A stretch of DNA of 64,000 nucleotides from a virus (IMGVR_UViG_3300044535_002275:32001-96000); one strand, 5' to 3'; shown: positions 20,697-63,956, counted from the stretch's first letter. Program-made: numbers and translations. The notes: generated from the letters alone by a model not told the origin.

Positions 20697-22015
20697 GCAA
20701 ACTTAGTAATTACAACTGGAAGGATCGCATACCTAATTATATAAAAATTGATTCACTAAATGAAGATCAACGACACAAATTAATCGATAGCGACACATTC
20801 TGCATGCTTCCGTGGATACATTTACATGCATGGCCGGATGGGCGTGCTTATCCTTGCTGTCTGGGCCAGGCTAAACATCCAGTAGGAAATTTCAAAGAAA
20901 AAAGCATGAGAGAGATATGGAACGACGAACCCATGAAAGAAATGCGTCGCAACATGCTAGCAGATAAGCCTTGCAAACAATGCGGAGATTGTTATGAGCA
21001 AGAAGCTGCTGGATTTTCGAGTATGAGAAATAACAGTAATAAAAGCTTTGGACACTACATTGACGAAATCGATCAGACATTACCAGACGGCAGTTTACCT
21101 GATATGAAATTGCACTATTGGGACGTGAGATTCAGCAACATTTGCAATCTTAAGTGTCGCAGTTGTGGTAGTATTTTTAGCAGCAGATGGTATGATGATG
21201 ATGTTAAACTTTGGGGCAAGCCTTTGCGTCCGCGAGTACAATTTGCAGGGCGGCACGAAGAAGATGTTTGGGAACAAATGCAAGAGCACATTCCGCACTT
21301 AGAACAAATTTATTTTGCTGGTGGCGAACCGTTGATAATGGAAGAACATAATCGCATACTTAAACTGCTGATCGAAAAAGGCAACACACGAGTAAGATTA
21401 ATCTATAACACAAATCTTACAGAATTGAAATTCAAAAAAGAAAGCGTTTTAGAACTATGGAAACATTTTCCTTCGGTATGTGTAGCTGCTAGTCTTGATG
21501 ATATGGGCGATCGAGCTGCTGTAATCAGATCTGGTACCGACTGGACACAGGTAGAACAAAACATACGTGATCTCAAAAGAGAATGTCCACATATCGATTT
21601 TATGATTAGTCCTACATTGAGTATGATGAACATATGGAATTTTGTCAACTTTCATCGATATATGATCGAAGGAGGGTTTATTGAACCCAAGGATTTTAAT
21701 CTAAATATTCTTCAAGGTCCCGATGACTACAGAATCGACGTATTGCCAATGGAGATAAAATTACAATTTAAGCAACAGTTTGAAGAACATATTGAATGGT
21801 TACGTCCTCAAGATCCTATAGAACGTGCAGTAGGCGGATTCGAAGGCGCAATAAAATTTATGATGGCTACTGACAACACACACCTGTTGCCTAAATTCTG
21901 GAAAACAGTTAATGACCTTGACTGGAGTCGCAGCGAAAGTTTGTTGTCGGTTGTACCAGAATTATCTGCTATAATTGAACATAGACCGATCGATACAAGG
22001 GTTCCGATAAAATGA
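20693..22015 (+). CDS. Twitch-domain radical SAM enzyme #3
   Basis: CMLPW...PCC...CGDC, CNLKCRSC, AGGEP; ATG 20693 overlaps the upstream TGA. Confidence 0.9.
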   Translation: MSKLSNYNWKDRIPNYIKIDSLNEDQRHKLIDSDTFCMLPWIHLHAWPDGRAYPCCLGQAKHPVGNFKEKSMREIWNDEPMKEMRRNMLADKPCKQCGDCYEQEAAGFSSMRNNSNKSFGHYIDEIDQTLPDGSLPDMKLHYWDVRFSNICNLKCRSCGSIFSSRWYDDDVKLWGKPLRPRVQFAGRHEEDVWEQMQEHIPHLEQIYFAGGEPLIMEEHNRILKLLIEKGNTRVRLIYNTNLTELKFKKESVLELWKHFPSVCVAASLDDMGDRAAVIRSGTDWTQVEQNIRDLKRECPHIDFMISPTLSMMNIWNFVNFHRYMIEGGFIEPKDFNLNILQGPDDYRIDVLPMEIKLQFKQQFEEHIEWLRPQDPIERAVGGFEGAIKFMMATDNTHLLPKFWKTVNDLDWSRSESLLSVVPELSAIIEHRPIDTRVPIK

Positions 22016-23223
22016 AATTACCTACAGATAAATTCTGCGTACTACCATGGATCAGCTTAGAAGCCAGTCCGATAGGTACAGTGCGTCCTTGCTGTTTAGC
22101 CGACGACGAAATCGTTGACAATGCCGGTAACAAATTTGAATTGGCCACAGCTAATTTTATAGATATACAGAACAGTAATCACATGCGTCAATTGCGGGAA
22201 CAATTTTTAGACGGACAAAAACCACAAACTTGTCGCAAGTGTTGGAATGAAGAACGATCAGGTCGTACTAGTAAACGTATGCATACACTGGATAGACTTA
22301 AACACATGTTGCCAGACCAGGATTGGACAACTGATGCCAAGTCGCTTATGTTTTTAGATTTAAAATTGGGTAACATTTGCAATTTAAAATGTCGTATCTG
22401 CGGTTCTTGGAGTAGTAGTCAATTTGCTGCTGAAGAACTAGGTCACATGAATCCAGCAGAAGATAAAAAGAAAACATTTGCTTATCAAATGCTAAAGGCA
22501 GGAGCATGGCCTAGAGAAAATCAACAGTTTTGGAATCAACTGGATTCTGTTGTTGACCAGATTCGATATATTGAATTCACTGGCGGCGAGCCATTTATGA
22601 TACAAGAACATTTTCAGTTACTGGAACGTTTAGTTGATCGCGGCATCGCTGGACAAGTTGAAATTCACTACAACACCAACGGCACACAGTTCCCAGAACA
22701 AGCTGAAAACATTTGGCAGCATTTTAAAACAGTAGAAATCGCTTTCAGCATCGACGATCTAGGCGATAGATTTGAATATCAACGAACCAATGCTGTATGG
22801 TCGGAAGTTGAGCACAACATTGCTAAATTCGATGCTATGCGTTTCCGTAATTCCAACATACAGTTACAGGCATGCATCACAGTCAATATATTCAACATTT
22901 ATTATATTGCCGAAGTAGCCAAGTGGGCTGCAAAACAAAATTTTAATTTCGTTTACTGGAACATGATGCATGACGCTTGGTATTTTAGCATTGCTACCTT
23001 GCCCGAATCGGCAAAATCTGCTATTACTCAACATCTCAGTCAACAAGATGTTCCAATACAATACCGAGCAGAATTTGAGAGAATTTGCGATTTTATGAAT
23101 CGAGGAGCTTCAACCGACGGATCAATACTACGAATGAAGATACGTGATCTAGATCATAAACGTAATCAAGATCTAAGACAAGTAGCAGCTGAATTTGCTG
23201 AGTTAATTGATTACAAATTATAA
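22012..23223 (+). CDS. Twitch-domain radical SAM enzyme #4
   Basis: CVLPW...PCC...CRKC, CNLKCRIC, TGGEP. Confidence 0.9.
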   Translation: MKLPTDKFCVLPWISLEASPIGTVRPCCLADDEIVDNAGNKFELATANFIDIQNSNHMRQLREQFLDGQKPQTCRKCWNEERSGRTSKRMHTLDRLKHMLPDQDWTTDAKSLMFLDLKLGNICNLKCRICGSWSSSQFAAEELGHMNPAEDKKKTFAYQMLKAGAWPRENQQFWNQLDSVVDQIRYIEFTGGEPFMIQEHFQLLERLVDRGIAGQVEIHYNTNGTQFPEQAENIWQHFKTVEIAFSIDDLGDRFEYQRTNAVWSEVEHNIAKFDAMRFRNSNIQLQACITVNIFNIYYIAEVAKWAAKQNFNFVYWNMMHDAWYFSIATLPESAKSAITQHLSQQDVPIQYRAEFERICDFMNRGASTDGSILRMKIRDLDHKRNQDLRQVAAEFAELIDYKL

Positions 23224-23226
23224 TAC

Positions 23227-24525
23227 ATGCAAAAACCAGAAACACTATGTATGGCACCGTGGACTCATACGTATCTAAGTCCGCAAACCGAAAGACGTAT
23301 GTGCTGTGCCAGCAGAGAGCCTGCTCAAAATTTTCAACAGTACATTGATACAAGTGCAGGAACTGGACGTTATATTCCAATCACACTCGATCAGCACTGG
23401 AATAGCGAACACATGAAAAGTGTTCGTCGTAGAATGATGGCCGGAGAAATCTTGCCCGAGTGCGAAGTTTGTAACGATAAGCTGTTAAATACAGATGTCT
23501 ATAGAACTTATTTTTGGCATTTGTTTAAACACAAGTATCAAGACATATGGACTTCAACTGACGACACTGGTGCAACTACAATGAAACCAGTTAGTTGGGA
23601 CTATCGTTTTAGTAATTTATGCAATTTTAAATGTAGGACTTGTGGAGACATGTTGTCCAGTGCATGGGAAAGCGAGCAACGGCAAAATAATATGATCGAC
23701 TGGTCGAATCCTAAAAATAACTGGATGCTACCGGAAGTTAAACAAGAAATTACTGCTTTTCAAGATAGACAAATAGAAGCCGAATTTGCGCAAGCAGTGG
23801 CAGAACATAGAGTAGAAGAAGTTTATTGGGTCGGTGGAGAACCGCTCATGTACGAACAGCATTGGCGATACATGCGTCAGATTGTCGATCAAGGCGACGG
23901 AGGACTTGTTTATGCTAGGTATAATACTAATCTTAGCCGCGTACAGTATCGCGGTATTGATCTTTACAGCGACATACTTGATCGTATACGTGATTGGCAA
24001 ATCTGTGCCAGTATCGACGGTACAGGAGCCGTCGGAGAATACATTCGTACCGGATTATCATGGCCTGTATTTTTAGAAAATTTCAAACGAGGTGTTGATC
24101 ACATGCGTCATCCTCGTCAGATGAGATTAGATTTTACATTAACATTACCTGGATTATTTGAAGTATCTAATATGCAATCAGCTGCTGATCAATTGGGAGT
24201 AGGTATTTTGGCCAAGGTTATATTCAGCTTTAGTCCAGACATTATCATGAGTCCACTGGCATTACCTCGACACATATTAGATAGAAAAATCAATCAGCTG
24301 GTAAAACAATTGCCCGCAGGTGCCTTGCAAGATTTATTGTTACAGCTTAAATCCAGACCTACGTTCCAGGAACAGTGGCCCGATCAATGGCGCGATGGAT
24401 TGGTCAAAGGCAAACAAAGAGTATTAAAACTAGAACACATTAGAAAGGATCGTTATACGTTAGGAGATATTCTAAGTGAAGATTCCGAAATAAAACAATG
24501 GTGGGACGATGTCAAAACAAATTAA
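23227..24525 (+). CDS. Twitch-domain radical SAM enzyme #5
   Basis: CMAPW...MCC...CEVC, CNFKCRTC, VGGEP. Confidence 0.9.
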   Translation: MQKPETLCMAPWTHTYLSPQTERRMCCASREPAQNFQQYIDTSAGTGRYIPITLDQHWNSEHMKSVRRRMMAGEILPECEVCNDKLLNTDVYRTYFWHLFKHKYQDIWTSTDDTGATTMKPVSWDYRFSNLCNFKCRTCGDMLSSAWESEQRQNNMIDWSNPKNNWMLPEVKQEITAFQDRQIEAEFAQAVAEHRVEEVYWVGGEPLMYEQHWRYMRQIVDQGDGGLVYARYNTNLSRVQYRGIDLYSDILDRIRDWQICASIDGTGAVGEYIRTGLSWPVFLENFKRGVDHMRHPRQMRLDFTLTLPGLFEVSNMQSAADQLGVGILAKVIFSFSPDIIMSPLALPRHILDRKINQLVKQLPAGALQDLLLQLKSRPTFQEQWPDQWRDGLVKGKQRVLKLEHIRKDRYTLGDILSEDSEIKQWWDDVKTN

Positions 24526-50419: not shown

Positions 50420-52471
50420 TTACTTGCTTTGTGCTATAAACACGCCGTTCCAGTCGCCGGGCAGTCGCTGTGTCTTTTGAAACTCGCAGCGTTCAATCCA
50501 CATGGTATAGTAATCAGTCATTCGACCATCAAACTCTGATTTCAGCTGTTCACACATTTCGATTGCTTGATCAAATTTCTGAGCACGATACAGACGGTGC
50601 ATTTCGTCGTGTTCTCTTTGTGATCTAACCTGTCGCAGTGTAGCATCACCAATGGCACTTAACACAGTGTAGATACCAACCCCAACTGACTTGCCTTTCA
50701 CGGCCAAGTCATCTATCTTGAGAAACAAGAACGCATCTCCGCACTGTTTGACTGTGTTCTCTCCAACCAACAGTACACAACCATATTCTTTACACTTGCT
50801 TTCAATGCGAGCTGTAGTACTCACAGCATCACCTAACACATCATAACTGTGTCGTGCAGTTGATCCCATTTCACCTATGTAGCCTAATCCTGTATTGATA
50901 CCAGCACCCATCTTAACACCTGGACGACCTCGAGCTTCTAATTCTCGACTAAACTCTTTGACTGCTTGAACCATTTTGAGTCCCACTGCCACAGCAGTCC
51001 GAGCGTGGTCGGGATCATCAATAGGAGCATTGTGTATGTGCATTGACGCATCGCCGATGTACTTGATGATCATACCGTTGGCTTCTAATACTGGTCGAGT
51101 GATAGCATCCATGTAGCCGTTCATGACTTCTGTCAAGCCTTTAACATCGTCTCCGAAACTTTCTCCTAATGGTGTAAAGCCGCGCAGATCACTGAAGCAG
51201 ATTGATACTTCTTTTTTAACACCCTTCTTGATCAGGTCAGGATTCTCTTGCAGCAGACGAACCACAGTAGGGCTGGCATAACCAGCAAATTGTTTCTTGA
51301 TGGCTTGCTTCTGTAGGAACTCGCTTACAAACTTAACACCATAAGCATGCAGAAGAACAAGACCCAGGCCCACAGCGATAGCAGTACTATCCACGAGCCA
51401 ACTATAAGCAGAAAACAGATATACACTACCACCGATACTGCCAGCAAGCACGACAACAGCAGAAATAATTCCAACATAAACCCACCTTGTTAACATTAAT
51501 AATATGATACTCAACACAACCAGTGCTACAATTTCGGCACCATCTGCCCAGTCAGGTCTTTGAATCGCAACACCGTTTAACAGTGTACCTACTACAGCGG
51601 CCTGTACTGCATGCGGATGAACAGCACCTAGACCGGTTGCCACTGGATTACTGATACCAGCAGCAGTTGGGCCCACAATGACCAAGGCACCATCAAACGA
51701 TTCGGGCAATGCAGTCATGGTGGCCGAATGTGCAGTCTGGCTCCAGTCGATCCATACACGGCCCAGGCTGTCGGTAGCAACAGGGCCAAACTTGGGAATA
51801 CGTATGCGTTCTACTCCTGACTCATTTAGTTTGACTTGGAATGTGGTATCGGATGCAGCCACTCGCATGATTTCAAATGCCAGGCTGGGGTACAAGCGAT
51901 CGCCCACAGCAATCACCAACGGCATGCGTCTATTGACACCGTCTAATTCAGGCAAGGTATGGACAGTGCCTACTCCCCGTGCTGGTCGTTCTAATTCTGG
52001 GATGTTGGCGATCATGCCAGGATATGACACAATGCGATCCAAGTATTGCGATCCAATCACAGCAGATCCAGGTCTACGTGGAGTATTTTTATTTTGTTCT
52101 GCTGGGATGTTGGGCAAGATTACCAGGTGCTTTTGCATTACAGACGACAATGCAGCATCGCCGCCGGCACGATCTGTTTCCGGCATCAGTACATTGAATA
52201 CCACTAGCCCAGCATCACGACGATACAGTTCTTCGATCAACTCAGCATAAACTGTTCTGGGAAAGGGCCATTGGCCATGTTTATTGATTGCAGCTTCGTC
52301 TATGTCCACAGTCCAAATTTCATTAACAGTGGGAGCCTGATTAACAATAAGCGTATCAAAGTATCTCAAGCGAACGCTTTCAACAAATGCAGGATCTGCT
52401 GCACGAATAACCACAATCAAGGCCAAAGTAACAACAGCAGTCCAAGGACTTAGCAAGATCTTTTTTATCAT
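50420..52471 (-). CDS. CHASE2-domain class III adenylate cyclase
   Basis: N-terminal TM, CHASE2 (VDIDE...GQWPFPR; DGVNRRMPL), three TMs, cyclase FSDLRGFT, KYIGDA, YDVLGDAVSTTARIE. Start MIKK at 52471. Confidence 0.92.
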   Translation of the reverse strand: MIKKILLSPWTAVVTLALIVVIRAADPAFVESVRLRYFDTLIVNQAPTVNEIWTVDIDEAAINKHGQWPFPRTVYAELIEELYRRDAGLVVFNVLMPETDRAGGDAALSSVMQKHLVILPNIPAEQNKNTPRRPGSAVIGSQYLDRIVSYPGMIANIPELERPARGVGTVHTLPELDGVNRRMPLVIAVGDRLYPSLAFEIMRVAASDTTFQVKLNESGVERIRIPKFGPVATDSLGRVWIDWSQTAHSATMTALPESFDGALVIVGPTAAGISNPVATGLGAVHPHAVQAAVVGTLLNGVAIQRPDWADGAEIVALVVLSIILLMLTRWVYVGIISAVVVLAGSIGGSVYLFSAYSWLVDSTAIAVGLGLVLLHAYGVKFVSEFLQKQAIKKQFAGYASPTVVRLLQENPDLIKKGVKKEVSICFSDLRGFTPLGESFGDDVKGLTEVMNGYMDAITRPVLEANGMIIKYIGDASMHIHNAPIDDPDHARTAVAVGLKMVQAVKEFSRELEARGRPGVKMGAGINTGLGYIGEMGSTARHSYDVLGDAVSTTARIESKCKEYGCVLLVGENTVKQCGDAFLFLKIDDLAVKGKSVGVGIYTVLSAIGDATLRQVRSQREHDEMHRLYRAQKFDQAIEMCEQLKSEFDGRMTDYYTMWIERCEFQKTQRLPGDWNGVFIAQSK

Positions 52472-52475
52472 AAGT

Positions 52476-52865
52476 TTATTTTGTAGTAGAGTCGCTGAAC
52501 ACGTACACACGTATTGGTGTACCTGACTTTGCGGCACGAGCACTTCTATGATGCCCGTCTAATATATAAAGCCTGCGGTCTTTTTTGTACACCACAGGTA
52601 AATCTTCATATTCGTCAAACAAGGCTCCGTCACTACCGTAGTTGCTGAGCCAGTCTTGTGTGGCAAACAACTGAGCAGGATTTACTGTAGCTACTTGTGG
52701 TTCGACGCCGGCTGCTATCTGTGCTTCCACCGCGTTGTGTAATAGGCCTGCATCTAGATAATCATCTGCTTTTTCAAATTCAGCAGTGCTAGGATCCAAA
52801 TATTGACCTATACGTAAATTGGTGCGCCATATATTGGGGTCTTGAGTAATTTCTGTTATTCTCAT
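52476..52865 (-). CDS. ParB/sulfiredoxin-like domain protein
   Basis: LFATQ, P.V, ILDGHHR; CTAAATA upstream and MRITEI N-terminus. Confidence 0.65.
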   Translation of the reverse strand: MRITEITQDPNIWRTNLRIGQYLDPSTAEFEKADDYLDAGLLHNAVEAQIAAGVEPQVATVNPAQLFATQDWLSNYGSDGALFDEYEDLPVVYKKDRRLYILDGHHRSARAAKSGTPIRVYVFSDSTTK

Positions 52866-52884
52866 AGTAGCAATATTTAGTCAC

Positions 52885-52906
52885 AAAGAAGCCCCAAAAG
52901 GGGCTA
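52885..52906 (-). terminator. Terminator after pstS
   Basis: AGCCCC-TTTT-GGGGCT then TCTTT. Confidence 0.7.
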
Positions 52907-52959
52907 ATTACTGGTTACGAGTTCCAGTGTGTACTCTATCTTGTACCCGGTTTACTTGA

Positions 52960-53970
52960 TTATTTTGCGATCTTGGACCAAACTTTATTACGAATTTGGT
53001 CGGTTAGCGTGTCAGGCAGTGCTACATAGTCCAGCTCTGATGCCAAGGCTTTGCCGTTCTTGAATGCCCAGTCAAAAAACTTGATGACTTCTGCTGAAGC
53101 TTTTGGGTCAGCGGGCTTGGCATACACTAGAATAAAACTGGCACCAGCAATGGGCCAGCTCTTAGCACCTGTGGCATCAATAATGCTTATGCCCATGCCT
53201 GGCTTACTGAACCAATCAGCATCGGCTGCTGCTGCGGCAAAGGATTCTTCGTTGGGATTTACATAGTGTCCATCACGATTCTGCAATTGAAGATGTTTGA
53301 TGTTGTTCTTTTTAGCGTAGGCATATTCTACATAACCAATGGCGCCAGCAACTCGTCTCACATTAGCAGCTACACCTTCGTTGCCTTTACCGCCAACTGA
53401 ACTGGCTGCGGGCCATTTGACAGCATTGCCTTTGCCAATCTTGTCTGCCCAGTCCTTGGATACTGTAGCAAGATAGTCGGTAAAGTGGTAAGTAGTGCCC
53501 GAACCGTCAGCACGATGTACCACGGTGATATTTTGATTGGGCAACTGCTTGCCGGGATTCAGTGCTGCTATCTTGGCATCATTCCATTTGAGGATGTTGC
53601 CTTGATAAATTTCAGCCAACACTGCACCAGTTAGTCGCAGTTCGCCTGGCTTGAATCCATCCAAATTGGCTATTGGCACCACACCGCCTAAGATAGCTGG
53701 GAATTGCAACAAGCCCAGCTTGTCCAAAGTGTCACCTGCTACTGGAGCATCTGACGCACCAAAGTTTACTGTTTTGTTGGTGATTTGACGAACACCACCA
53801 GAACTACCAATACTTTGATAATTGAATCTTACGCCGGTTTCTTTGTTGTAAACTTCTGCCCACTTGGCATAGATGGGATAGGGGAATGTTGCACCAGCAC
53901 CTGTGATTTGTTGTGCTGATACTGCAAAACTTGATACTGCTAATAATAGTACAGCTACTATTTTTTTCAT
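52960..53970 (-). CDS. pstS: Phosphate ABC transporter substrate-binding protein
   Basis: Signal peptide, GAGATFP, YQSIGSSGG, FGASD, RADGSGTT, GAIGYVE. Confidence 0.96.
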   Translation of the reverse strand: MKKIVAVLLLAVSSFAVSAQQITGAGATFPYPIYAKWAEVYNKETGVRFNYQSIGSSGGVRQITNKTVNFGASDAPVAGDTLDKLGLLQFPAILGGVVPIANLDGFKPGELRLTGAVLAEIYQGNILKWNDAKIAALNPGKQLPNQNITVVHRADGSGTTYHFTDYLATVSKDWADKIGKGNAVKWPAASSVGGKGNEGVAANVRRVAGAIGYVEYAYAKKNNIKHLQLQNRDGHYVNPNEESFAAAAADADWFSKPGMGISIIDATGAKSWPIAGASFILVYAKPADPKASAEVIKFFDWAFKNGKALASELDYVALPDTLTDQIRNKVWSKIAK

Positions 53971-54002
53971 TGTAAATCTCCTTGTGAAAAGTATTTACAA
54001 TA

Positions 54003-54036
54003 ATAGTAGCATATTATTATTACAGTTGCGTGACAA
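54003..54036 (-). promoter_or_regulatory. Pho box promoter of pstS
   Basis: TTGTCAC-GCAA-CTGTAAT (54036-54019), 10 nt, then -10 TACTAT; canonical PhoB geometry. Confidence 0.75.
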
Positions 54037-54049
54037 AAGCAGCTTTTGT

Positions 54050-54337
54050 CTATTTTGTTTTTGTAGTGTGACCAGTTCCTAACCCAATTACACAGACCAT
54101 GTCGGTGTTAAATTGTATAAGAGTCCACCCACCAGTTTTTTCGTCCACCAATAAGGCATAACGACTTGAGACACCTGAGCCAATCCAAAAAGGTCGTTCA
54201 GTAGGGTTGGCTTCGATCAAGGCTCGAAATGCAACTTCGGGTGTTTCGCATATAACTTTTTTGTCTACAGTCACAGGTCCCGATTGGGCCAAACTCAGGG
54301 CAGGCAACAGTAGAATACTAGCCAATAAATGTTTCAT
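54050..54337 (-). CDS. Small exported protein
   Basis: Signal peptide (SLA|Q), two Cys, GGAG RBS. Confidence 0.6.
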   Translation of the reverse strand: MKHLLASILLLPALSLAQSGPVTVDKKVICETPEVAFRALIEANPTERPFWIGSGVSSRYALLVDEKTGGWTLIQFNTDMVCVIGLGTGHTTKTK

Positions 54338-54411
54338 AGTATTCTCCGTGTTACTGCTATTTACCCTAAACCACTGTTATCGCACTGCAATTTGCAGCAC
54401 AAAAACGTTGT

Positions 54412-55503
54412 TTATTTTTGTACGATTGTAATTGCAGTGTTACCACCTTGGTTAACTTGTTGTCTAACTTGTACTCCGCCTTGATTTATGTTGATCACAG
54501 CATTGGACTCGGTGCCGACAGTGACTTCGGCAATGTGATCGGTCCTACGATACAAAGTGATCTTGCTTTTGTCATCATTGAAATAGTATCCGATGTTGGT
54601 GGCAGGATTATAATTGGGCAAGATATTTTTTTCAAAGGCACTGCCCAGTGCTGTTTTATTCTGTGCTGATAGTTCGTCTGTTTCGGCCAAGGCCAGGAGA
54701 TCAATGTCTAAATCATTACGATCGATCTCTTTCTTTTCGTCTAGTTCGTTTTTATCCAAGTCCTTGAACGCCAATAAATCCACATCAAGATCGTTTTTAT
54801 CCAACTCAGTCTTGTCCGACCGATACGCAGTTTCTTTAATTTCCACCGGCGGACTTATGATCAACATGTTGTTGATGTTGGCCTGATCGATTGAAATCAC
54901 AGTGGGATTAGATGGAGCAGAGGTCAAACTGTTGACCACAGTGGCTTGATAAGCCACATCCAACAACACACTTCCTGCTTCGTTGGAAACTTCGATAGCA
55001 CCAGTCACACACCCTTTCTTGTCGCAGCTGGGCAATAGCATGACCAAGCTGCGACCCAATTCATCCACCGTCATAGAGAAGTCTGTGCCACGCACTGCTA
55101 CAGTAGCAGTGGGAGTTCGTACGTTGACTGCTTGTGGATTATTTTTAGCAATCTGACCAGACGCATAACGTGCTGTGCCTAGTGCAACTCGCATGGCCAG
55201 CTTGCCTGTTCCTTGCGAAGCGTCGTACACAAAGTCATCTATGACCAGTTTACTTTGCTCAGTTATTTTGACCGTGGTTTTATCTTCGAACGACAAAGTG
55301 ACACGACTCTTGGCAGTGGTCACTGTGTCCTGCATCTCGATTGCGGTGTTGATTGAACTCTCAACACTTTTTTTATTTCTGACAATTTCTGTAGGACCAG
55401 TCTGTTCAGTGACTCGCCCCACAGGAGCTGCAAAATTAGTTGGACTGATTGACAGTAATAGAGTTACTGTTACCAGTTGAAGTAATAGTTGCTTGTTGTA
55501 CAT
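54412..55503 (-). CDS. FecR-domain protein with an acidic repeat linker and a curlin-like C-terminus
   Basis: DTVTT...LSFEDKTTVKI.EQS.L.ID, VRTPTATVAVRGTDF; its signal peptide overlaps the curlin gene end. Confidence 0.85.
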   Translation of the reverse strand: MYNKQLLLQLVTVTLLLSISPTNFAAPVGRVTEQTGPTEIVRNKKSVESSINTAIEMQDTVTTAKSRVTLSFEDKTTVKITEQSKLVIDDFVYDASQGTGKLAMRVALGTARYASGQIAKNNPQAVNVRTPTATVAVRGTDFSMTVDELGRSLVMLLPSCDKKGCVTGAIEVSNEAGSVLLDVAYQATVVNSLTSAPSNPTVISIDQANINNMLIISPPVEIKETAYRSDKTELDKNDLDVDLLAFKDLDKNELDEKKEIDRNDLDIDLLALAETDELSAQNKTALGSAFEKNILPNYNPATNIGYYFNDDKSKITLYRRTDHIAEVTVGTESNAVININQGGVQVRQQVNQGGNTAITIVQK

Positions 55504-56047
55504 TGGTTCCGCCTTGTGTCAAGCTGATGGTATTGCCACTTAACGCTACTCCGCCAGTGACTGTTATGATTGCTGAGTGCGCACCAGAACCTGACGTGGT
55601 ATGTGTCACTGTGTTCTCATCACCGGTGATCAAGATCTCACTGTACTGAGTAGCAGATGCAACCAAGTTTTGTGTCACTGTGTTGTTGTCACCAGTGACT
55701 TGTTGCTTGATGAAACTGCTGCCGCATGTGGCACTGTTGGCAGTACCGCAATTGATCACCTGTGTGTTGTTGCTGCCGTTGGTGGTCACAGTTGCAGTAA
55801 TTGCAGCGCCGTTGATGATCATGTCCAAGGCATTCGAGCTACCAATTTGATCAATGGTTACTATATTGGCATCGCCTTTGATTATGGAAGGTGTGCCGTC
55901 AGCGCCTATCCTGTTGCTGTTGCCATCCTGTAGTATGGTGATAGCAGCACCATCACCTACCTGTTCTATATAAACATCATTTGCTTGAGCTGTAGGCACC
56001 CAAGCCAGGGCAGCGATTACTGCCATTATTCCAAAACGTTTAAGCAT
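55436..56047 (-). CDS. Curlin-repeat (CsgA/CsgB-like) exported protein
   Basis: Signal peptide; N...I.Q.G..N repeats (NDVYIEQVG, ITILQDGNSN, VTIDQIGSSN, ISLTQGG, ITVNQSN). Confidence 0.75.
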   Translation of the reverse strand: MLKRFGIMAVIAALAWVPTAQANDVYIEQVGDGAAITILQDGNSNRIGADGTPSIIKGDANIVTIDQIGSSNALDMIINGAAITATVTTNGSNNTQVINCGTANSATCGSSFIKQQVTGDNNTVTQNLVASATQYSEILITGDENTVTHTTSGSGAHSAIITVTGGVALSGNTISLTQGGTNVQQATITSTGNSNSITVNQSN

Positions 56048-56066
56048 TTTTTGCTCCTTTTTATTA

Positions 56067-56849
56067 TTATTTTTTGAACCGCCATAAACCTGAACGTTCT
56101 CCGCTCATGATCATTTCATACACAGCCTGCTCAATTGCCACACGTACTGCATAAGTTGTGGGCTCATTCAAGGTTGCACCGTTTTCTAATTCTATGCTTT
56201 TAGTAGCAGAGTCAAAGAATTTAAGTGCGCCCAGAGTATGAGCTGTACTGTATATTGTTTTGGAGATACTGTTGCTGATCAACACTTCTCCTGAGTTGAC
56301 TGATATCAGTCTAATGCTGACTACCACTTCGTCAACTCGATACTGTTGGCTTCCGCCGATGCCTAGTATTCTAGCACCGCTTCCGCCTGTTCTGATGTTG
56401 CTGTCATAACCAATGATGCCACCTTCTATTATGAGTCCAGCCACTATCATGGGCTTGAGAGGTTTGGCATCCTTGCCTTCGTAAATTTCTCGCTGATTAC
56501 GTATCAGCTGACGTTCCTTGATCAAGTTGTCCAGGCCCACACGCTCGACCACACGGAACCAACCCGGCACATCCTTTAGGCTCTTGATCAAGAACACTTC
56601 AGCCCCTTGTGTCACTGCTTTGCTGAACACAGCCAACTTATCGTTGGGTTTCAGCTGTCCTGTCTTGTCAGCAAATCCGTACACTGCCACAGTGACAACA
56701 GGACCATCGAGAGGAGGAATCTTTTCAATGAGATTCACTCGTGGTTTGATCTCCACGGGTTCCTCGCGAGCTGCGCTCATGTGAATCTGAGCACACCCGC
56801 CGACTAAAGCAAGTAGTAAAACGGCTAGGATACGCATGTTAAAACGCAA
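56067..56849 (-). CDS. csgG: Curli secretion channel CsgG-like lipoprotein
   Basis: Lipobox LVGG-C, VAVYGFADKTGQ.K, AVTQG, WFRVVERVGLDNL.KERQLIR, IEGGIIGYDSN, NEP. Start may be 56837. Confidence 0.92.
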   Translation of the reverse strand: MRFNMRILAVLLLALVGGCAQIHMSAAREEPVEIKPRVNLIEKIPPLDGPVVTVAVYGFADKTGQLKPNDKLAVFSKAVTQGAEVFLIKSLKDVPGWFRVVERVGLDNLIKERQLIRNQREIYEGKDAKPLKPMIVAGLIIEGGIIGYDSNIRTGGSGARILGIGGSQQYRVDEVVVSIRLISVNSGEVLISNSISKTIYSTAHTLGALKFFDSATKSIELENGATLNEPTTYAVRVAIEQAVYEMIMSGERSGLWRFKK

Positions 56850-57288
56850 AGCTCGCTATTGGTACAACAACTTCAGTTCTATTACCTGTGGTATCTAGTA
56901 TGGTTAGAGTCACCGTGCTGCCATTCTTGAGCCACGTGATGCTGCTGCCTTGAAAGTCCAAGGTGCCGGTGTTCTTGTCTGACTCACCGAACATGTTGTC
57001 GGCCAACTGTTTGCTCAACTGCGCATAGATTCTTGATTCCAAGTTTACAATAAACTTGGCCAAGGTGGTGTTCTTGGCATCACGCTCGGCCTTGTCTCGG
57101 GCTGCTTGTTCAGCATCGTTAATTTTTTGTCGACGTTGTGTTTCTAATTGTTCTATGGTCAACACATGTGCCGAATAGCCCTGGCCACTAAAGGCAGGGC
57201 TAGAAAATTGGTGCACCAATTCGCTGGCCTGTGTACTGCCGCCTACGACCGATAGTGCCAGCATGATTGCTGTCAACCCGGTTCTCAT
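56839..57288 (-). CDS. csgF: Curli assembly component CsgF-like
   Basis: Signal peptide, ELVHQFSSPAFSG, F..NLESRIYAQLS.QL, TEVVVP. Confidence 0.85.
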   Translation of the reverse strand: MRTGLTAIMLALSVVGGSTQASELVHQFSSPAFSGQGYSAHVLTIEQLETQRRQKINDAEQAARDKAERDAKNTTLAKFIVNLESRIYAQLSKQLADNMFGESDKNTGTLDFQGSSITWLKNGSTVTLTILDTTGNRTEVVVPIASFAF

Positions 57289-57357
57289 TGTAAACGCTCC
57301 TGTTATTTTTTACCTGCTTTATATTTAATCATACCGCGAAATTAGTTATGTACACAC

Positions 57358-57389
57358 AAAGAAAAATCCTGCCGAGGCAGGATTTTCTT
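57358..57389 (-). terminator. Terminator after ompA
   Basis: AAAATCCTGC-CTCG-GCAGGATTTT then TCTTT. Confidence 0.75.
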
Positions 57390-57409: not shown

Positions 57410-57958
57410 TTACTTGATTGCAGTGATGACCACTCGTCGGTCGGGTGCCAGGCATGACTTGAGGCGTTCAAAGTTTTTCATTCCAGTACAAAGTTTTGTA
57501 CCTTCGGTTGGTTGTGTTGCTCCAACTCCTTGAGTGACAAACTTGCTCTTGAATCCCGACTTGGCATTCAGATAATCGCCTACCGCACCTGCACGTTGCT
57601 GACTCAATCGAAGATTGTAAGCAGCAGTGCCAATACGATCAGTGTGACCAACCACGGTCACTGTAGAACCTGGAGCAATGGTTGCAGCCAACTGATCCAG
57701 TGCTGCACGACCTACTGATGTAAGTGCTGCTGAATCAAATTCAAACAACACATCACCATTGATAGTGACAGGCGCACGTTCTGCAACAGGATCACATGCC
57801 TTGACTGCGTCAGCAGCGGTATAAGTTCCGGTATGCAAGCAAAGGCCTGAACCTGTACGAACAATCTGACCTGATCCATCTGTTACATATCCTGGAGTGC
57901 CTTGAGCAATGGCCAGGAATGCAACAGCGGATAACATGACGGCTAATAATGCTTTCAT
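57410..57958 (-). CDS. OmpA/RmpM-type peptidoglycan-binding protein
   Basis: Signal peptide, betaproteobacterial N-terminus GYVTDGSGQIVRTGSGLC, LFEFDSA.L, GHTDRIG, YN.RLS.QRA, CLAPDRRV. Confidence 0.9.
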   Translation of the reverse strand: MKALLAVMLSAVAFLAIAQGTPGYVTDGSGQIVRTGSGLCLHTGTYTAADAVKACDPVAERAPVTINGDVLFEFDSAALTSVGRAALDQLAATIAPGSTVTVVGHTDRIGTAAYNLRLSQQRAGAVGDYLNAKSGFKSKFVTQGVGATQPTEGTKLCTGMKNFERLKSCLAPDRRVVITAIK

Positions 57959-57972
57959 TGTTATCCTTTAGA

Positions 57973-59145
57973 TTAGAACTGGTGACGCAAGCCAACACCG
58001 ACCACAGTGCTCTTGGCAGTGTCAACAGTGGCCAGGTTATCCATGTAACTCACGTAAGCATACGCATTGGTGCGCTTGGTGAAATCATATGTATAGCCCA
58101 GGTTGTAAGCTGACTGATTCTGTGCATTGTAAACATCTTTCATGTTGGTGTTGGGAGTCAACAAGGTCCAGCTGACCATAACACGGCTTGCGGCATTGAC
58201 GGGGACAGTAGCACCCAGCAGGTAGCTGTTGTAACCCATGTTCTGATCAAAGATCACTTCGCCATTGGCATTGGCCGGATTACCGTTTAAATTAATACCA
58301 GCACCTGTAGCGCCATTGCCCTGACCCAGGATGTAACCACCGCGTGTTTGGCCGTACGCTGCTGACAATTTGGCAACCTTAAGATCATACGCTCCGCCCA
58401 GGTTCCATGAACTGGGATTGCTGGCACTGATAGAACTGGTAGGTGCATAAATCTTGTCATATGACAAGGCAGTATAAACTGGACCATTGGTGTAGTTGGC
58501 ACCTAATGACAACTGACGCACGTTGTTGTTGGTTTCAAAGTTGTAGCCAGTAGAACCTACTCTTGAAACTCTTGCAGCAGCACCATCAATAGCTGTGTTG
58601 CTCATGCCATTGGCAAATGAGTAAGCAGCACCTGCACGGAATCCTGACATCAAAGGTGACTGGTACTTGATGGCATTGCTCATACGCAAAGTATTAGCTG
58701 CACCAAATGCTGCACCAATGTTGGCTTGTCCGAAGCCTTGACTAAACGGATCAATTGCGCCGAAATAGTCAGAGGCTAAGTTGTATTGACGGCCGATACG
58801 AGCCAAGCCCCAGGCGTTGTTTTCCACACCCAGATAAGCCTGACGACCAAACAGCCGGTTGGATTGACCACTAGTGCCATTTCCTAATTCAAATCCGCTT
58901 TCTAAAACAAAAGTAACGCGGTTACCGTTGCCAATGTCTTCAACACCACGCAGACCAAAACGGTTGCCACTTTGTACGCCATATGCAGCACCAAAGTTTG
59001 ATGCAGACGCATCTTGCAAACTCACTGTTTGATAACGAATTCCAGCATCTAGAATACCGTACAGTGTAACAGATGATTGAGCTGTAGCTGCAAAGCTCAG
59101 GCCCATTGCGGCCGTTAGTACTGCTAGTTTATGAGTAACTTTCAT
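57973..59145 (-). CDS. Betaproteobacterial-type trimeric general porin
   Basis: AQSSVTLYGILDAG, RFGLRGVEDIGNG, LFGRQAYLG, C-terminal GLRHQF. Confidence 0.93.
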   Translation of the reverse strand: MKVTHKLAVLTAAMGLSFAATAQSSVTLYGILDAGIRYQTVSLQDASASNFGAAYGVQSGNRFGLRGVEDIGNGNRVTFVLESGFELGNGTSGQSNRLFGRQAYLGVENNAWGLARIGRQYNLASDYFGAIDPFSQGFGQANIGAAFGAANTLRMSNAIKYQSPLMSGFRAGAAYSFANGMSNTAIDGAAARVSRVGSTGYNFETNNNVRQLSLGANYTNGPVYTALSYDKIYAPTSSISASNPSSWNLGGAYDLKVAKLSAAYGQTRGGYILGQGNGATGAGINLNGNPANANGEVIFDQNMGYNSYLLGATVPVNAASRVMVSWTLLTPNTNMKDVYNAQNQSAYNLGYTYDFTKRTNAYAYVSYMDNLATVDTAKSTVVGVGLRHQF

Positions 59146-59196
59146 TACTTCTCCTTTAAAGTTTTAAAAAATGTGTATATATTTTATAGACAAGTA

Positions 59197-59225
59197 ATTA
59201 TATAGCGAATTGTGCAACGTGTCAA
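59197..59225 (-). promoter_or_regulatory. Consensus sigma70 promoter for porin-ompA
   Basis: TTGACA-N17-TATAAT. Confidence 0.8.
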
Positions 59226-59287: not shown

Positions 59288-59683
59288 TCAGATCGAATAC
59301 GTATTGCCTTTGCTCATATTTTCCTTAGCTGGCAAATATTGCAGATTTTCTAAGACATGGAATCCGCTTACTAATTTTCCTCTTAGCGGGATTATATGGT
59401 CGACATGGTATCCTTCGGGACAATTTAGATAGAAGTTTTTAATCGCTTGCTTATCTGCCCAAGCCGGCATTCTTTGCAATCTAACTGCTCGTTCAGTTGC
59501 ACTTTTTAATCTAACTTTATCTCTATTATTTTTTTGCCACCGTCTGTATCGTTCTGACTGAGTTTTGGCATTAGACCGACGTTGAGCTTCTTGTTTACCG
59601 GGCTTGTTTAAATATTTTTGTTGGTAAGCTTTAAAACGTTCTTTTCGTTCTTCTTCGGTTTCTATTATTTTTTTGCGTCCCAT
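59288..59683 (-). CDS. Free-standing HNH (homing-type) endonuclease
   Basis: YHVDHIIPLRG..VSGFHV.ENLQ.L...EN.SK.N; basic N-terminus. GATAAATA late motif favours start MGRKK at 59683. Confidence 0.88.
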   Translation of the reverse strand: MGRKKIIETEEERKERFKAYQQKYLNKPGKQEAQRRSNAKTQSERYRRWQKNNRDKVRLKSATERAVRLQRMPAWADKQAIKNFYLNCPEGYHVDHIIPLRGKLVSGFHVLENLQYLPAKENMSKGNTYSI

Positions 59684-59706
59684 GATATTATTTATCATCG
59701 TTTGCT

Positions 59707-59732
59707 AAAAGAAAAGCCCGCCGAAGCGGGCT
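59707..59732 (-). terminator. tmRNA terminator
   Basis: AGCCCGC-TTCG-GCGGGCT-TTTCTTTT. Confidence 0.8.
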
Positions 59733-60048
59733 ACTATTTTCTGTTTCGAAGGATAGTTCCTCAATAACGGCTTAAGCGGCCGCTAAAAATAACTCATCAT
59801 TAGCTGCGGTTATTTGGTTGTTTACTTTTAACGACTATCTGTGTCGAGTTGTCCATGCCGTTACTTGTTGCCCAATCGAAACCTGGTCAGCCCCATCAGA
59901 AGCATACTATGGTGAAATAGACTTACAATGTAGAGGTCTTGGCTTACCATTCCTGATCTTTTTACAGATTTTAATATGCTTATGGTGGAGCTGGAGGGAA
60001 TCGAACCCTCGTCTTGAACACTTTTCTCTTTACTTCATACAACAATTC
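59733..60048 (-). ncRNA. ssrA: Circularly permuted (two-piece) tmRNA
   Basis: Minus-strand order: T-arm plus CAGCTCC-A-CCA (ends 59983), 88-nt spacer, GGGGCTG (59894; G3.U pair), tag GCA GCT AAT GAT GAG TTA TTT TTA GCG GCC GCT TAA = AANDELFLAAA* (59807-59772). P2 TTGGGCA/TGTTCAA. Confidence 0.92.
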
Positions 60049-60054
60049 TTAAAA

Positions 60055-60210
60055 TCAATCCGGCTGTTTACGAGCATTGAGTTTATCAGATGCATAGGTA
60101 ACCAGCACCCATGGTAGTACAGCATGAATTACTAATGCACCTGCTATCTTTAACGCAAAAAATAAATGCTTGAAATATCCCACGTTGTTTTCTTTCAGAT
60201 GATCAATCAC
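60055..60210 (-). CDS. Small membrane protein (DUF6356-like; not in the ORF track)
   Basis: MIDHLKENNVGYFKHLFFALKIAGALVIHAVLPW...AS; H/Y..H/IHA..P pattern. Confidence 0.55.
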   Translation of the reverse strand: MIDHLKENNVGYFKHLFFALKIAGALVIHAVLPWVLVTYASDKLNARKQPD

Positions 60211-62391: not shown

Positions 62392-62466
62392 TGGTGCCCC
62401 CACCCGGAATCGAACTGGGATTTGATGATTACAAGTCAACTGTAATAGCCGTTATACTATAGGGGC
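62392..62466 (-). tRNA. tRNA-Thr(UGU)
   Basis: GCCCCTA...CT-TGT-AA...GTTCGATTC...TGGGGGC-A-CCA. Confidence 0.92.
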
Positions 62467-62476
62467 GTGAAACTGT

Positions 62477-62683
62477 TTACTCAACTGATTCAACAGCTAC
62501 AACCTGTCCGATGTAGCTTTTTCGACTTTTTACAATCCGAATTCGATTGAGAATTTTTGCTTTAATTTTCTTTTTTCCTTCTTTTTCTAATACAGACTCT
62601 AGTTGACTCACTGTCAATCCACCAAGCCTAATTTTACCAGTTTTGGTTTTGTTTGGATCTCTAACTTGATTACGTTGCGACAT
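62477..62683 (-). CDS. Small basic hypothetical protein
   Basis: AAGGA RBS; 68 aa. Confidence 0.55.
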   Translation of the reverse strand: MSQRNQVRDPNKTKTGKIRLGGLTVSQLESVLEKEGKKKIKAKILNRIRIVKSRKSYIGQVVAVESVE

Positions 62684-62701
62684 TTTATTCCTTTAAAATT
62701 T

Positions 62702-62789
62702 TGGCGGGTAGTATAGGAGTCGAACCTATCCACCGGTTTCCCAGTGAGGGATTAGCAATCCCTTGCCTTAACCGCTCGGCCAACTACCC
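62702..62789 (-). tRNA. tRNA-Ser(GCU)
   Basis: GGGTAGT...TT-GCT-AA, long variable arm, G73, encoded CCA. Confidence 0.93.
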
Positions 62790-62801
62790 AATAATCTTAT
62801 T

Positions 62802-62996
62802 TTATAGCAAATCTTTTAAATTTGCAATCTGCGCTGGACTCAAAACCAATTCGAACTGTGTCTGCACACTTCCGTCTCTACGAGCATGATCCCATTCTGT
62901 TAGGAATCTAATTTGTTTGTGTCCTGCTGGTTTAGCTATGTCTCTGATTTCTAAAATAGTTCGAAATCCGTCGTTGTCATTAATAACTGTTTTCAT
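62802..62996 (-). CDS. Small hypothetical protein
   Basis: 64 aa; AGGA upstream. Confidence 0.5.
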   Translation of the reverse strand: MKTVINDNDGFRTILEIRDIAKPAGHKQIRFLTEWDHARRDGSVQTQFELVLSPAQIANLKDLL

Positions 62997-63003
62997 TTTA
63001 ATC

Positions 63004-63453
63004 CTAAGTATTTGCGTCTGTAAATAATTTAGTAAATTCTGGATCCTTGCTAAAGACTCGCACAGATGATGACAAACGAGCTACTAAATGTATTCCAGTT
63101 TCGGAATGTTCTTGGCACCATTCAAACACTTGGTCTTTCACGGGACGATTGGATAGTACCAACAACACATACCGATAGTTTTCAATCGATCTGTTTACTA
63201 AAATAACACCTGACTGATCCGGGCGCATCCATTCGGGTACACGGGTGTTTATTTTCCAGTGACATTTGAATGTTTGGCAGGGCGTTTCTGGTCGGATCAT
63301 GTAGATACCGCAACCTGATTGATTCAAGTAATGACAAGGTTTTCCGGGATAAAATTCGTGTCCGTATGCTTCGCCAGTTAACCAACCTTCACAACACATG
63401 CGGCAACTGCTGCAGGCTCGGTCTACGGACTTTTTACTAAGTATCGGTATCAT
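63004..63453 (-). CDS. YkgJ-like CxxCxxCC zinc/iron-chelating protein
   Basis: CSSCRMCC...C.YL....C.IY..RP..C..F.C.W. Confidence 0.75.
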   Translation of the reverse strand: MIPILSKKSVDRACSSCRMCCEGWLTGEAYGHEFYPGKPCHYLNQSGCGIYMIRPETPCQTFKCHWKINTRVPEWMRPDQSGVILVNRSIENYRYVLLVLSNRPVKDQVFEWCQEHSETGIHLVARLSSSVRVFSKDPEFTKLFTDANT

Positions 63454-63494
63454 CCATTAATTATGCAAAATATATCAGGATGGTAAAATAAAAT

Positions 63495-63571
63495 TGGATG
63501 CAGGGGCTGGATTCGAACCAGCGACCTCCAGGTTATGAGCCTAGCGGGATGACCAACTTCCCTACCCTGCG
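63495..63571 (-). tRNA. tRNA-Met(CAU), initiator-like
   Basis: C1.A72 mismatch, G2-C71, C3-G70, purine11-pyrimidine24, CT-CAT-AA, CCA. Confidence 0.9.
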
Positions 63572-63584
63572 ATTGATTGTTCAA

Positions 63585-63782
63585 TGGCCACTTGCGTCCC
63601 CGCTAGCCCCATTCTGAGTTGTCTACCCTGTCGATCCATTTATTTTTCTGGACAGGTTGGCTCCTGCCCTACGGTGTTTTCAAGACGCGGCGGTAATGCC
63701 GCCTTGAGGACTGACCGTATGTACCCTGCTGGTATGGCTGCAGCAATCGCCCCCTATACTTACGAGTAGGGATCCCGGGATT
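63585..63782 (-). ncRNA. Unidentified ~200-nt structured RNA in the tRNA cluster
   Basis: GC-rich non-coding gap between tRNA-Asp and tRNA-Met, with multiple helices, a possible pseudoknot and a ...GGCCA end. Confidence 0.6.
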
Positions 63783-63790
63783 CTAAAAGT

Positions 63791-63868
63791 TGGCGACTCG
63801 GACGGGATTCGAACCCGTGATCTCTTGCGTGACAGGCAAGCGTATTAGGCCAACTATACTACCGAGCC
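63791..63868 (-). tRNA. tRNA-Asp(GUC)
   Basis: GGCTCGG...CT-GTC-AC...CCGAGTC-G-CCA. Confidence 0.94.
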
Positions 63869-63872
63869 AATT

Positions 63873-63956
63873 TGGTGGAGGTGGTAGGGATCGAACCTAC
63901 CTGGCGTTAGCCCACGAATTTACAGTCCGCTGTCCCACCGTTGGAACATCACCTCC
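63873..63956 (-). tRNA. tRNA-Tyr(GUA)
   Basis: GGAGGTG...CT-GTA-AA, long variable arm, CACCTCC-A-CCA. Confidence 0.92.

Follow-up and report, generated by a model that had tools for sequence, protein, structure and literature searches.

Type VIII secretion (T8SS, curli) genes have previously been described in phages. Zaragoza-Solas et al. 2020 reported csgF/csgG clusters in pelagimyophages, with a freshwater group that has no such operon (PMC7029224), and Buchholz et al. 2022 reported csgF/csgG in phage Melnitz, for which a role in lysis timing was proposed (PMC9004378). The full module, consisting of CsgF, CsgG, CsgA/B, FecR, often a second CsgA/B, and an adenylate cyclase (AC), was described in pelagiphages by Wittmers et al. 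2022, who found it in myophages as well as podophages, inferred that it originated in Alphaproteobacteria and estimated that phage curli genes amount to ~0.1% of assembled viral proteins (PMC9599517). According to the same study, FecR and AC do not lie within bacterial T8SS operons, and CsgC, CsgD and CsgE are not present in the alphaproteobacterial modules. CHASE2 is mentioned in none of these three papers. Here we analysed a locus of this kind at positions 50420-57288 of IMGVR_UViG_3300044535_002275:32001-96000, a stretch of 64,000 nucleotides of viral DNA (hereafter the window), in which csg genes and a FecR-domain gene are followed by a nucleotide cyclase with a CHASE2 receptor domain.

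An original prediction, made from the sequence alone, had described csgF, csgG, a curlin gene and a FecR gene as tightly coupled, with a CHASE2 adenylate cyclase ~2 kb downstream on the same strand. This was confirmed for all five genes, coordinates included. Counted from the first letter of the window, they are (aa, amino acids):

56839-57288, minus strand: csgF, secreted pore-cap/nucleation factor with a signal peptide (Pfam CsgF, E 1.9e-18; phrog_35372)
56067-56849, minus strand: csgG, outer-membrane lipoprotein channel with the lipobox LVGGC (Pfam CsgG, E 4.8e-51)
55436-56047, minus strand: curlin-repeat gene, CsgA/B-like, 203 aa (Pfam Curlin_rpt, E 1.7e-6)
54412-55503, minus strand: FecR-fold periplasmic protein, 363 aa (Pfam FecR, E 2.3e-12)
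50420-52471, minus strand: CHASE2 receptor class III nucleotide cyclase (Pfam CHASE2, E 7.9e-37, and Guanylate_cyc, E 3.2e-17)

The gene set is already known, and the window holds a new member of the published module, carried by a T4-like phage from lake water. Genes, order and strand are those of the published phage module (csgF-csgG-curlin-FecR-...-cyclase; PMC9599517, PMC7029224, PMC9004378), with FecR directly after the first curlin and the cyclase downstream, and the GenBank record of Melnitz has csgF-csgG-curlin-FecR-curlin-cyclase annotated contiguously. The window lies in a linear contig of 159.5 kb (42% G+C, rated 44% complete), and the phage genome encodes a T4-type gp23 capsid protein. 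Several features set it apart from the published module: the lake-water instead of marine origin, the large genome (a relative rated 100% complete measures 364 kb), the lack of a second curlin, which is frequent but not universal there, a pstS gene and a ParB-like open reading frame (ORF) before the cyclase, and a porin-OmpA operon directly upstream. Podophage versions have a histidine kinase upstream of csgF (PMC9599517); none was found there in the window, where OmpA and porin genes are present instead, and the large upstream ORFs of relatives were without a Pfam domain. The window extends the phage curli module to large freshwater phages.

The prediction had named a cyclase unlinked from the csg genes in relatives as an observation that would speak against it, and co-occurrence across phage genomes was surveyed from both ends of the module. 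Relatives of the cyclase were encoded by 287 viral contigs, and csgG lay within 7.5 kb in 55/55 loci for which 8 kb or more of upstream sequence was available; both genes were on the same strand in 53 of these and convergent in two, in which the cyclase was inverted. Starting from CsgG and counting loci with at least 8 kb of downstream sequence, FecR and the cyclase were both present in 41/41. The linkage was kept across cyclase identities of 37-93%, in phage and bacterial copies, and also after inversion. A cyclase apart from csg genes was thus not seen in the loci sampled, and the prediction withstood this check. Among 50,697 GenBank phage records, a cyclase homologue was found only in Methylophilales phage Melnitz (50.5% identical) and Pelagibacter phage HTVC008M (35.6%), the nearest cultured phages, both of which have the module.

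The four upstream genes lie close together: the stop codon of csgF overlaps with the ATG of csgG, csgG and the curlin gene are 19 nt apart, and the curlin and FecR genes overlap by 68 nt. The csgG ORF opens at a TTG (56849), with the ATG at 56837 as the likely start, and its product is 41-48% identical to CsgG of alphaproteobacterial csg loci. The mature N-terminus of CsgF retains the motif F-x-x-P-x-F-x-G, which resembles the pore-inserting constriction peptide of E. coli CsgF. The curlin-repeat protein has a signal peptide, one Cys pair and, by eye, at least six strand-turn-strand Q/N/G units. Curlin_rpt gave three matches genome-wide, all inside this one gene, making it the sole curlin in the 159.5-kb contig. 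CsgE and CsgC had no match at E <= 1 in the contig, which is rated 44% complete. The claim of a single curlin and no csgE/csgC, originally made for the window, holds for the whole contig to that extent. A second, larger curlin (190-840 aa) lies between FecR and the cyclase in most relatives; it is absent here and also in the closest subclade.

With bacterial curli the phage module shares the CsgG lipoprotein channel, CsgF and a secreted curlin-repeat subunit for which fibre formation is predicted, and its csgF-csgG-curlin order is that of the alphaproteobacterial csgF-csgG-csgA type, as in the seven loci described below. Compared with csgBAC-csgDEFG of E. coli, it is without detected CsgE or CsgC and adds the FecR-fold gene and the CHASE2 cyclase. 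Related phages infect lineages for which the literature reports no csg genes. As far as the sequences tell, the phage curlin and CsgF keep all features of an export-and-fibre system. The missing CsgE and CsgC say nothing against fibres, because alphaproteobacterial modules with the csgF-csgG-curlin order also do without CsgC, CsgD and CsgE (PMC9599517). The proposal that the genes act "rather than building" fibres was accordingly found to be unsupported, given the signal peptide and repeats of the curlin, the pore-inserting motif of CsgF and the two curlins of most relatives.

The FecR-fold protein consists of a signal peptide, a beta sandwich (residues 56-213), a disordered acidic linker (226-287) and a six-stranded C-terminal beta domain (305-362). 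Its AlphaFold2 model (predicted local distance difference test score, pLDDT, of 73) matched the periplasmic domain of PupR (6ovk; Z 15.3, root-mean-square deviation 2.5 Å, 134 residues) and BDI_1681 (Z 13.9), and the family alignment demonstrated an invariant Cys pair in the FecR/PupR-type sandwich. Neither sequence nor model contains a cytoplasmic anti-sigma domain or a transmembrane (TM) helix, the signal peptide being the only hydrophobic segment, and the protein should therefore be unable to act alone as a FecR-type transcription regulator. It shares the periplasmic beta-sandwich fold with the FecR/PupR anti-sigma regulators; unlike in these, no STN subdomain was aligned, and the module has no gene for a TonB-dependent transducer or an extracytoplasmic function (ECF) sigma factor. 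The phage protein does not qualify as an iron regulator of the FecR kind, and a plausible reinterpretation of this so-called FecR "iron regulator" is a periplasmic partner of the CHASE2 receptor. A homologue search returned, among the best 120 of 6266 matches (E <= 1e-5), only close metagenomic relatives and no bacterial context.

The C-terminus of the FecR-fold protein ends in the curlin-like pattern Q-G-G-N-x-A-x-x-x-x-Q, which is also kept in one of the bacterial copies described below (L235). Comparison with the last curlin repeat gave an hhalign E of 0.011, and Pfam Curlin_rpt matched 0/20 family members; a curlin repeat at this position was therefore kept as a lead only. When folded alone (pLDDT 71), the C-terminal domain had no Foldseek match in the PDB at E <= 0.001. 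A Foldseek hit to a "cell surface anchoring domain" (5ix9) maps to the N-terminal sandwich with Z 4.2 and is not meaningful.

The long ORF of the cyclase starts at 52543; the ATG at 52471 is the likely true start and gives a protein of 683 aa. It comprises one TM helix, a periplasmic CHASE2 domain, a hydrophobic region of ~75 residues read as three TM helices, a cytoplasmic cyclase domain and a helical tail of ~80 aa. Hydropathy placed the hydrophobic segments at residues ~26-56 and 331-408 of the long ORF, which is the usual CHASE2 layout, and both the CHASE2 domain and the tail are conserved across phage relatives. D428 and D474 (metal), K470 and D544 (substrate-specifying) and R555 (transition-state), assigned with the help of alignments to cyclases in the PDB, are invariant in 60 distinct phage sequences. 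Relative to class III adenylate cyclases, the metal Asp residues, the Lys-Asp pair and the Arg are thus kept, five of the six catalytic residues, and the usual transition-state/ribose-contact Asn is replaced by Ser551 in 60/60 phage-clade sequences. A Lys-Asp pair in class III cyclases points to ATP. All 20 of 20 alphaproteobacterial homologues have Ser/Thr at the specificity site and Asn at the second site, as do the basal csg-linked copies, which marks Asp544/Ser551 as derived in the main phage clade. No cNMP_binding domain was detected in the contig or in five large relatives, including the complete one of 364 kb, and a phage-encoded cyclic AMP (cAMP) receptor was rejected for these genomes.

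Two further observations were made on the cyclase. When the window gene and 60 relatives were compared, pairwise distances of the CHASE2 and TM half correlated with those of the cyclase and tail half at r 0.40, against 0.83 and 0.91 within the halves, a hint that recombination has occurred between the two halves, sensor and catalytic, of the gene. In addition, ORFs of 99-133 aa upstream of csgF or of the cyclase in six relatives (L004, L007, L044, L052, L063 and L081) resemble the helical tail (24-28% identity, residues ~572-677) and may be a free-standing copy of this domain.

Relatives of the individual parts are found in bacteria. Cyclase homologues of ~33-36% identity were present in 153/301 sampled alphaproteobacterial genomes; the best 20 loci had an adjacent Pfam-confirmed FecR-domain gene in 4/20 and csg genes in 0/20. 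TbpB-like C-termini, suspected by eye in two of the bacterial FecR partners, had no Pfam match. CsgG was detected in 7/400 genomes, always in the order csgF-csgG-curlin, and up to a distance of 10 kb neither FecR nor the cyclase was present at any of these seven alphaproteobacterial loci. Among bacterial loci that encode a relative of the phage FecR protein, 25/66 had a CHASE2 gene within 1.6 kb and, outside csg contexts, 0/66 had csg genes. The CHASE2 protein has a cyclase output in 14 of these 25 loci and another output in 11; they span several phyla and include cultured Pelagibacter strains. Judged from these gene neighbourhoods, FecR-CHASE2 is an old two-gene pairing, in line with PMC5192318, and the earlier statement that FecR-domain genes neighbour CHASE2 genes in bacteria holds true (25/66 and 4/20 loci). 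Comparable pairs are the Burkholderia BiofilmReg operon and P. aeruginosa PA4035/4036 (PMC5192318), in which the gene for a CHASE2 receptor has one for a periplasmic FecR-domain protein next to it; the Burkholderia receptor has a histidine kinase as output and a partner with a LysM domain, whereas the phage receptor has a cyclase. SAR11 genomes (L245-L249, L286, L292-L296 and L302-L303), including cultured HIMB4, encode a FecR-domain protein of their own and, ~1.3-1.4 kb away, a CHASE2 protein in which no cyclase domain is recognisable.

The whole block, csgF-csgG-curlin(s)-FecR-CHASE2 cyclase, was found in a bacterial chromosomal context in three loci from metagenome-assembled genomes (MAGs). 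The copy in a Henriciella MAG (L314) lies on a 397-kb contig with a G+C content near that of its flanks, which encode an alanine racemase-like protein, an FAD oxidase, an FAA hydrolase and a TonB-dependent receptor, among others. Two Caulobacteraceae MAG copies (L235 and L236) are flanked by genes for acyl-CoA dehydrogenase, amidohydrolase, DsbA, glycosyltransferases and a peptidase. In a cyclase tree, rooted by a csg-unlinked outgroup and by midpoint, the csg-linked cyclases fall on one side of a branch with full support (Shimodaira-Hasegawa-like approximate likelihood ratio test, SH-aLRT, 100), with the bacterial copies at the base and the phage copies nested. On the evidence of these sequences, the block as a whole arose once, the chromosomal copies in Caulobacterales bacteria included, and transfer from bacterium to phage is suggested. 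A chromosomal block in bacteria is new with respect to the published statement that FecR and AC lie outside bacterial T8SS operons.

Several phage-type copies in MAGs were set aside. A scan of bacterial genomes with the phage cyclase gave three MAG contigs only, which at 52-59% identity are nearer to the phage cyclases than to bacterial ones, and one of these sits in a MAG with several copies of a phage-type cassette. A MAG labelled Rhodobacteraceae (Water_Bin34, G001) has five CsgG copies and several phage-type cassettes on separate contigs, and contamination of the bin by phage contigs is the probable explanation. Copies of phage type also occur in several further MAGs from unrelated phyla.

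Because they are inherited jointly in phages as well as in bacteria, the secretion part and the FecR-CHASE2 part probably work together. We consider it rather likely that the window represents a member of the known phage T8SS module in which fibre export and FecR-CHASE2 signalling coexist, and not a sensor instead of a fibre. Late in infection, as the TAAATA motifs described below would imply, the CsgG-CsgF channel would be placed in the host outer membrane, and the curlin-repeat protein would be exported through it and probably polymerise at the cell surface. The FecR-fold protein, the component most tightly co-inherited with CsgG and CsgF, would reside in the periplasm and form, together with the inner-membrane CHASE2 cyclase, a periplasm-to-cytoplasm arm that converts a cue from the envelope or from the state of secretion into a cyclic nucleotide, cAMP being the most likely. 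This signal would probably be read by host receptors, because no phage-encoded cNMP-binding protein was found. A precedent is known from S. meliloti, where the outer-membrane protein NsrA signals to CyaK and CyaD1/D2, which are CHASE2 adenylate cyclases (PMC7529298); NsrA is a beta-barrel and not a CsgG. The interpretation first given to the locus, a CsgG pore and curlin sensing at the surface and relaying through FecR to cAMP synthesis, thus stands in part: the five genes form one conserved unit, and the topology allows a relay because all partners are extracytoplasmic or membrane proteins, whereas its non-fibre half is unsupported. A bolder version, which we regard as unlikely, is that the block is one trans-envelope device invented in Caulobacterales and captured whole by phages. 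The FecR-fold protein would then report the state of curlin export or polymerisation at CsgG-CsgF to CHASE2, Asp544/Ser551 would alter activity or product of the cyclase, and infected cells would thereby set lysis timing, superinfection exclusion or host metabolism.

Several points weigh against the coexistence of fibre export and FecR-CHASE2 signalling. The link of the FecR-fold protein to CHASE2 or CsgG is one that we only infer, and a mirror-tree test of FecR-CHASE2 co-evolution gave no specific signal: the distance-matrix correlation between FecR domain and CHASE2 (r 0.49) was not above that between CsgG and CHASE2 (0.50). The correlation between FecR domain and CsgG (r 0.89) is explainable by physical linkage alone. 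A curlin-like nature of the FecR C-terminus is weakly supported in profile comparison, family matches and fold alike. No cell clumping was seen in Melnitz cultures (PMC9004378), the FecR-cyclase interval has its own promoter-like motifs and a terminator, so that co-transcription is not required, and the Asn-to-Ser change in all phage-clade sequences leaves cyclase activity and product at the level of prediction. Some of these points favour two independent units, namely a T8SS/fibre unit, with the FecR-fold protein serving in secretion as accessory or as nucleator, and a CHASE2 cyclase separate from it, joined by ancestry and physical linkage. Co-variation of the FecR domain and C-terminus is seen with CsgG and CsgF (r 0.89, 0.75 and 0.72) and is weak or absent with CHASE2 (0.49 and 0.06), the interval from FecR to cyclase contains variable cargo as well as promoters and a terminator, and the cyclase is inverted in two loci. 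However, the linkage persists over the whole range of cyclase identities in phages and bacteria even after such inversion, FecR relatives outside csg contexts pair with CHASE2 (25/66) and not with csg genes (0/66), and the seven alphaproteobacterial csg loci function without a nearby FecR gene. We give this explanation a small chance of being right.

That the CsgG pore and single curlin make no fibres and are a pure surface sensor, relayed by FecR to the cyclase, for example in superinfection detection, is more doubtful still. The single curlin of the window's subclade, the curlin-like pattern at the FecR C-terminus, the Melnitz cultures without clumping (PMC9004378) and the NsrA-CyaK precedent (PMC7529298) are in its favour, but curlin and CsgF retain all sequence features of export and fibre formation, most relatives have two curlins, the second of 190-840 aa, and the absence of CsgC, CsgD and CsgE is uninformative, as alphaproteobacterial modules are also without them (PMC9599517). 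A repurposed CsgG-CsgF pore that times lysis or admits molecules has been put forward by Buchholz et al. and Zaragoza-Solas et al. (PMC9004378, PMC7029224). This reading, with the cyclase as part of the timer, fits the late expression expected from the promoter-like motifs. It appears very improbable, since it leaves the conserved curlin genes and the FecR-fold protein unexplained and since the module also occurs in bacterial chromosomes, where lysis timing plays no role. Lastly, the cyclase could be a defence-type (Pycsar-like) signal generator whose product activates a membrane effector, leading to abortive infection or superinfection exclusion. One Caulobacteraceae copy (L236:11554-12147) does have a PycTM-like effector with two TM helices, 442 nt downstream of the module cyclase on the same strand (Pfam PycTM, E 8.8e-25; PADLOC PycTM, E 9.6e-18), and the nucleotide pocket is altered in the phage clade. 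This effector is confined to L236, being absent from L235, L314, the phage genome and ~174 phage-type loci, and PADLOC found no effector, PycTM and PycTIR included, among the neighbours of the window cyclase. The PycC model matches no better than expected for any class III cyclase, and the Lys-Asp pair points to ATP. A Pycsar-like role is extremely improbable.

Phage curli genes are abundant in aquatic viromes. If cultured relatives carry the block, a coupling of amyloid secretion to cyclic nucleotides would become genetically testable in Henriciella or Caulobacteraceae, which is hard in SAR11/OM43 phage systems. A defined periplasmic CHASE2 partner would be useful beyond phages.

The interval between FecR and cyclase and the region upstream of csgF contain the following additional features:

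54050-54337, minus strand: orf95, short protein, secreted, containing two Cys (unmatched in Pfam, PHROG and PADLOC)
52960-53970, minus strand: pstS-like periplasmic phosphate-binding protein (Pfam PBP_like_2, E 6.7e-35)
52476-52865, minus strand: orf129, ParB/sulfiredoxin-like, DGHHR motif, 129 aa (weak Pfam ParBc_2 match, E 0.0016, below the curated cut-off)
57322-57327, minus strand: TAAATA motif, T4-type late-promoter-like, 39 nt upstream of csgF
57362-57387, minus strand: terminator-like hairpin with an 11-bp stem, separating the upstream porin-OmpA operon from csgF

The FecR-cyclase gap measures 1.94 kb here and has a median of 2.5 kb in 55 relatives, in which the interval is a cargo hotspot that holds a second curlin in many loci, homologues of orf95 and assorted unknown genes. 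The orf95 homologues lie just upstream of the cyclase in ~15 related loci. In most relatives pstS is absent from this position; here it is followed by a terminator-like hairpin (52905-52890, terminator scan). The ParB-like orf129 is directly upstream of the cyclase and has the same place in L002, a relative with 93% identity. Together, pstS and the ParB-like ORF are cargo of the window's lineage, inserted within the module. The arrangement is not an assembly chimera, because contigs without differences from the window bridge the cyclase/ParB-like ORF/pstS junctions in two independent lake-water metagenomes.

TAAATA motifs are also present before orf95 (54363-54358), pstS (53997-53992) and orf129 (52879-52874). 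Genome-wide, 28 such motifs lie 10-39 nt upstream of gene starts, compared with ~1.4 expected, and TAAATA is probably the late-promoter core of this phage. It stands before four module units, a pattern suggestive of several promoters active late in infection.

Directly upstream of csgF, a porin (Porin_4) and an OmpA-like gene (57410-59225) form an operon of their own with a sigma-70 promoter matching the consensus at 12/12 positions and a separate terminator. This arrangement was observed only in the closest relatives (L152 and L153); in L003 the pair is downstream of the cyclase. The porin was also considered for host assignment, and its best matches (45-55% identical) are to the order of one MAG labelled Bordetella (3/201 genomes), which is too weak to name a host. 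In 31 related loci, a secreted D-Ala-D-Ala carboxypeptidase (Peptidase_S11, E 1.4e-37; e.g. L023:12080-12814) lies just downstream of the cyclase, an envelope-directed neighbour that is not at this position in the window.

The stretch was present in many lake-water metagenome runs from different studies. No RNA run was listed among them; the one labelled RNA-Seq, which is probably DNA, has small contigs only. Elsewhere in the window, an ORF of >3485 aa (1-10458) runs off the window start, and four radical SAM/SPASM genes lie in a row (16852-24525) beside several unknown ORFs. ARAGORN identified a permuted, two-piece transfer-messenger RNA (59681-60075) with the tag AANDELFLAAA, and a cluster of five tRNA genes is found at 62392-63956.

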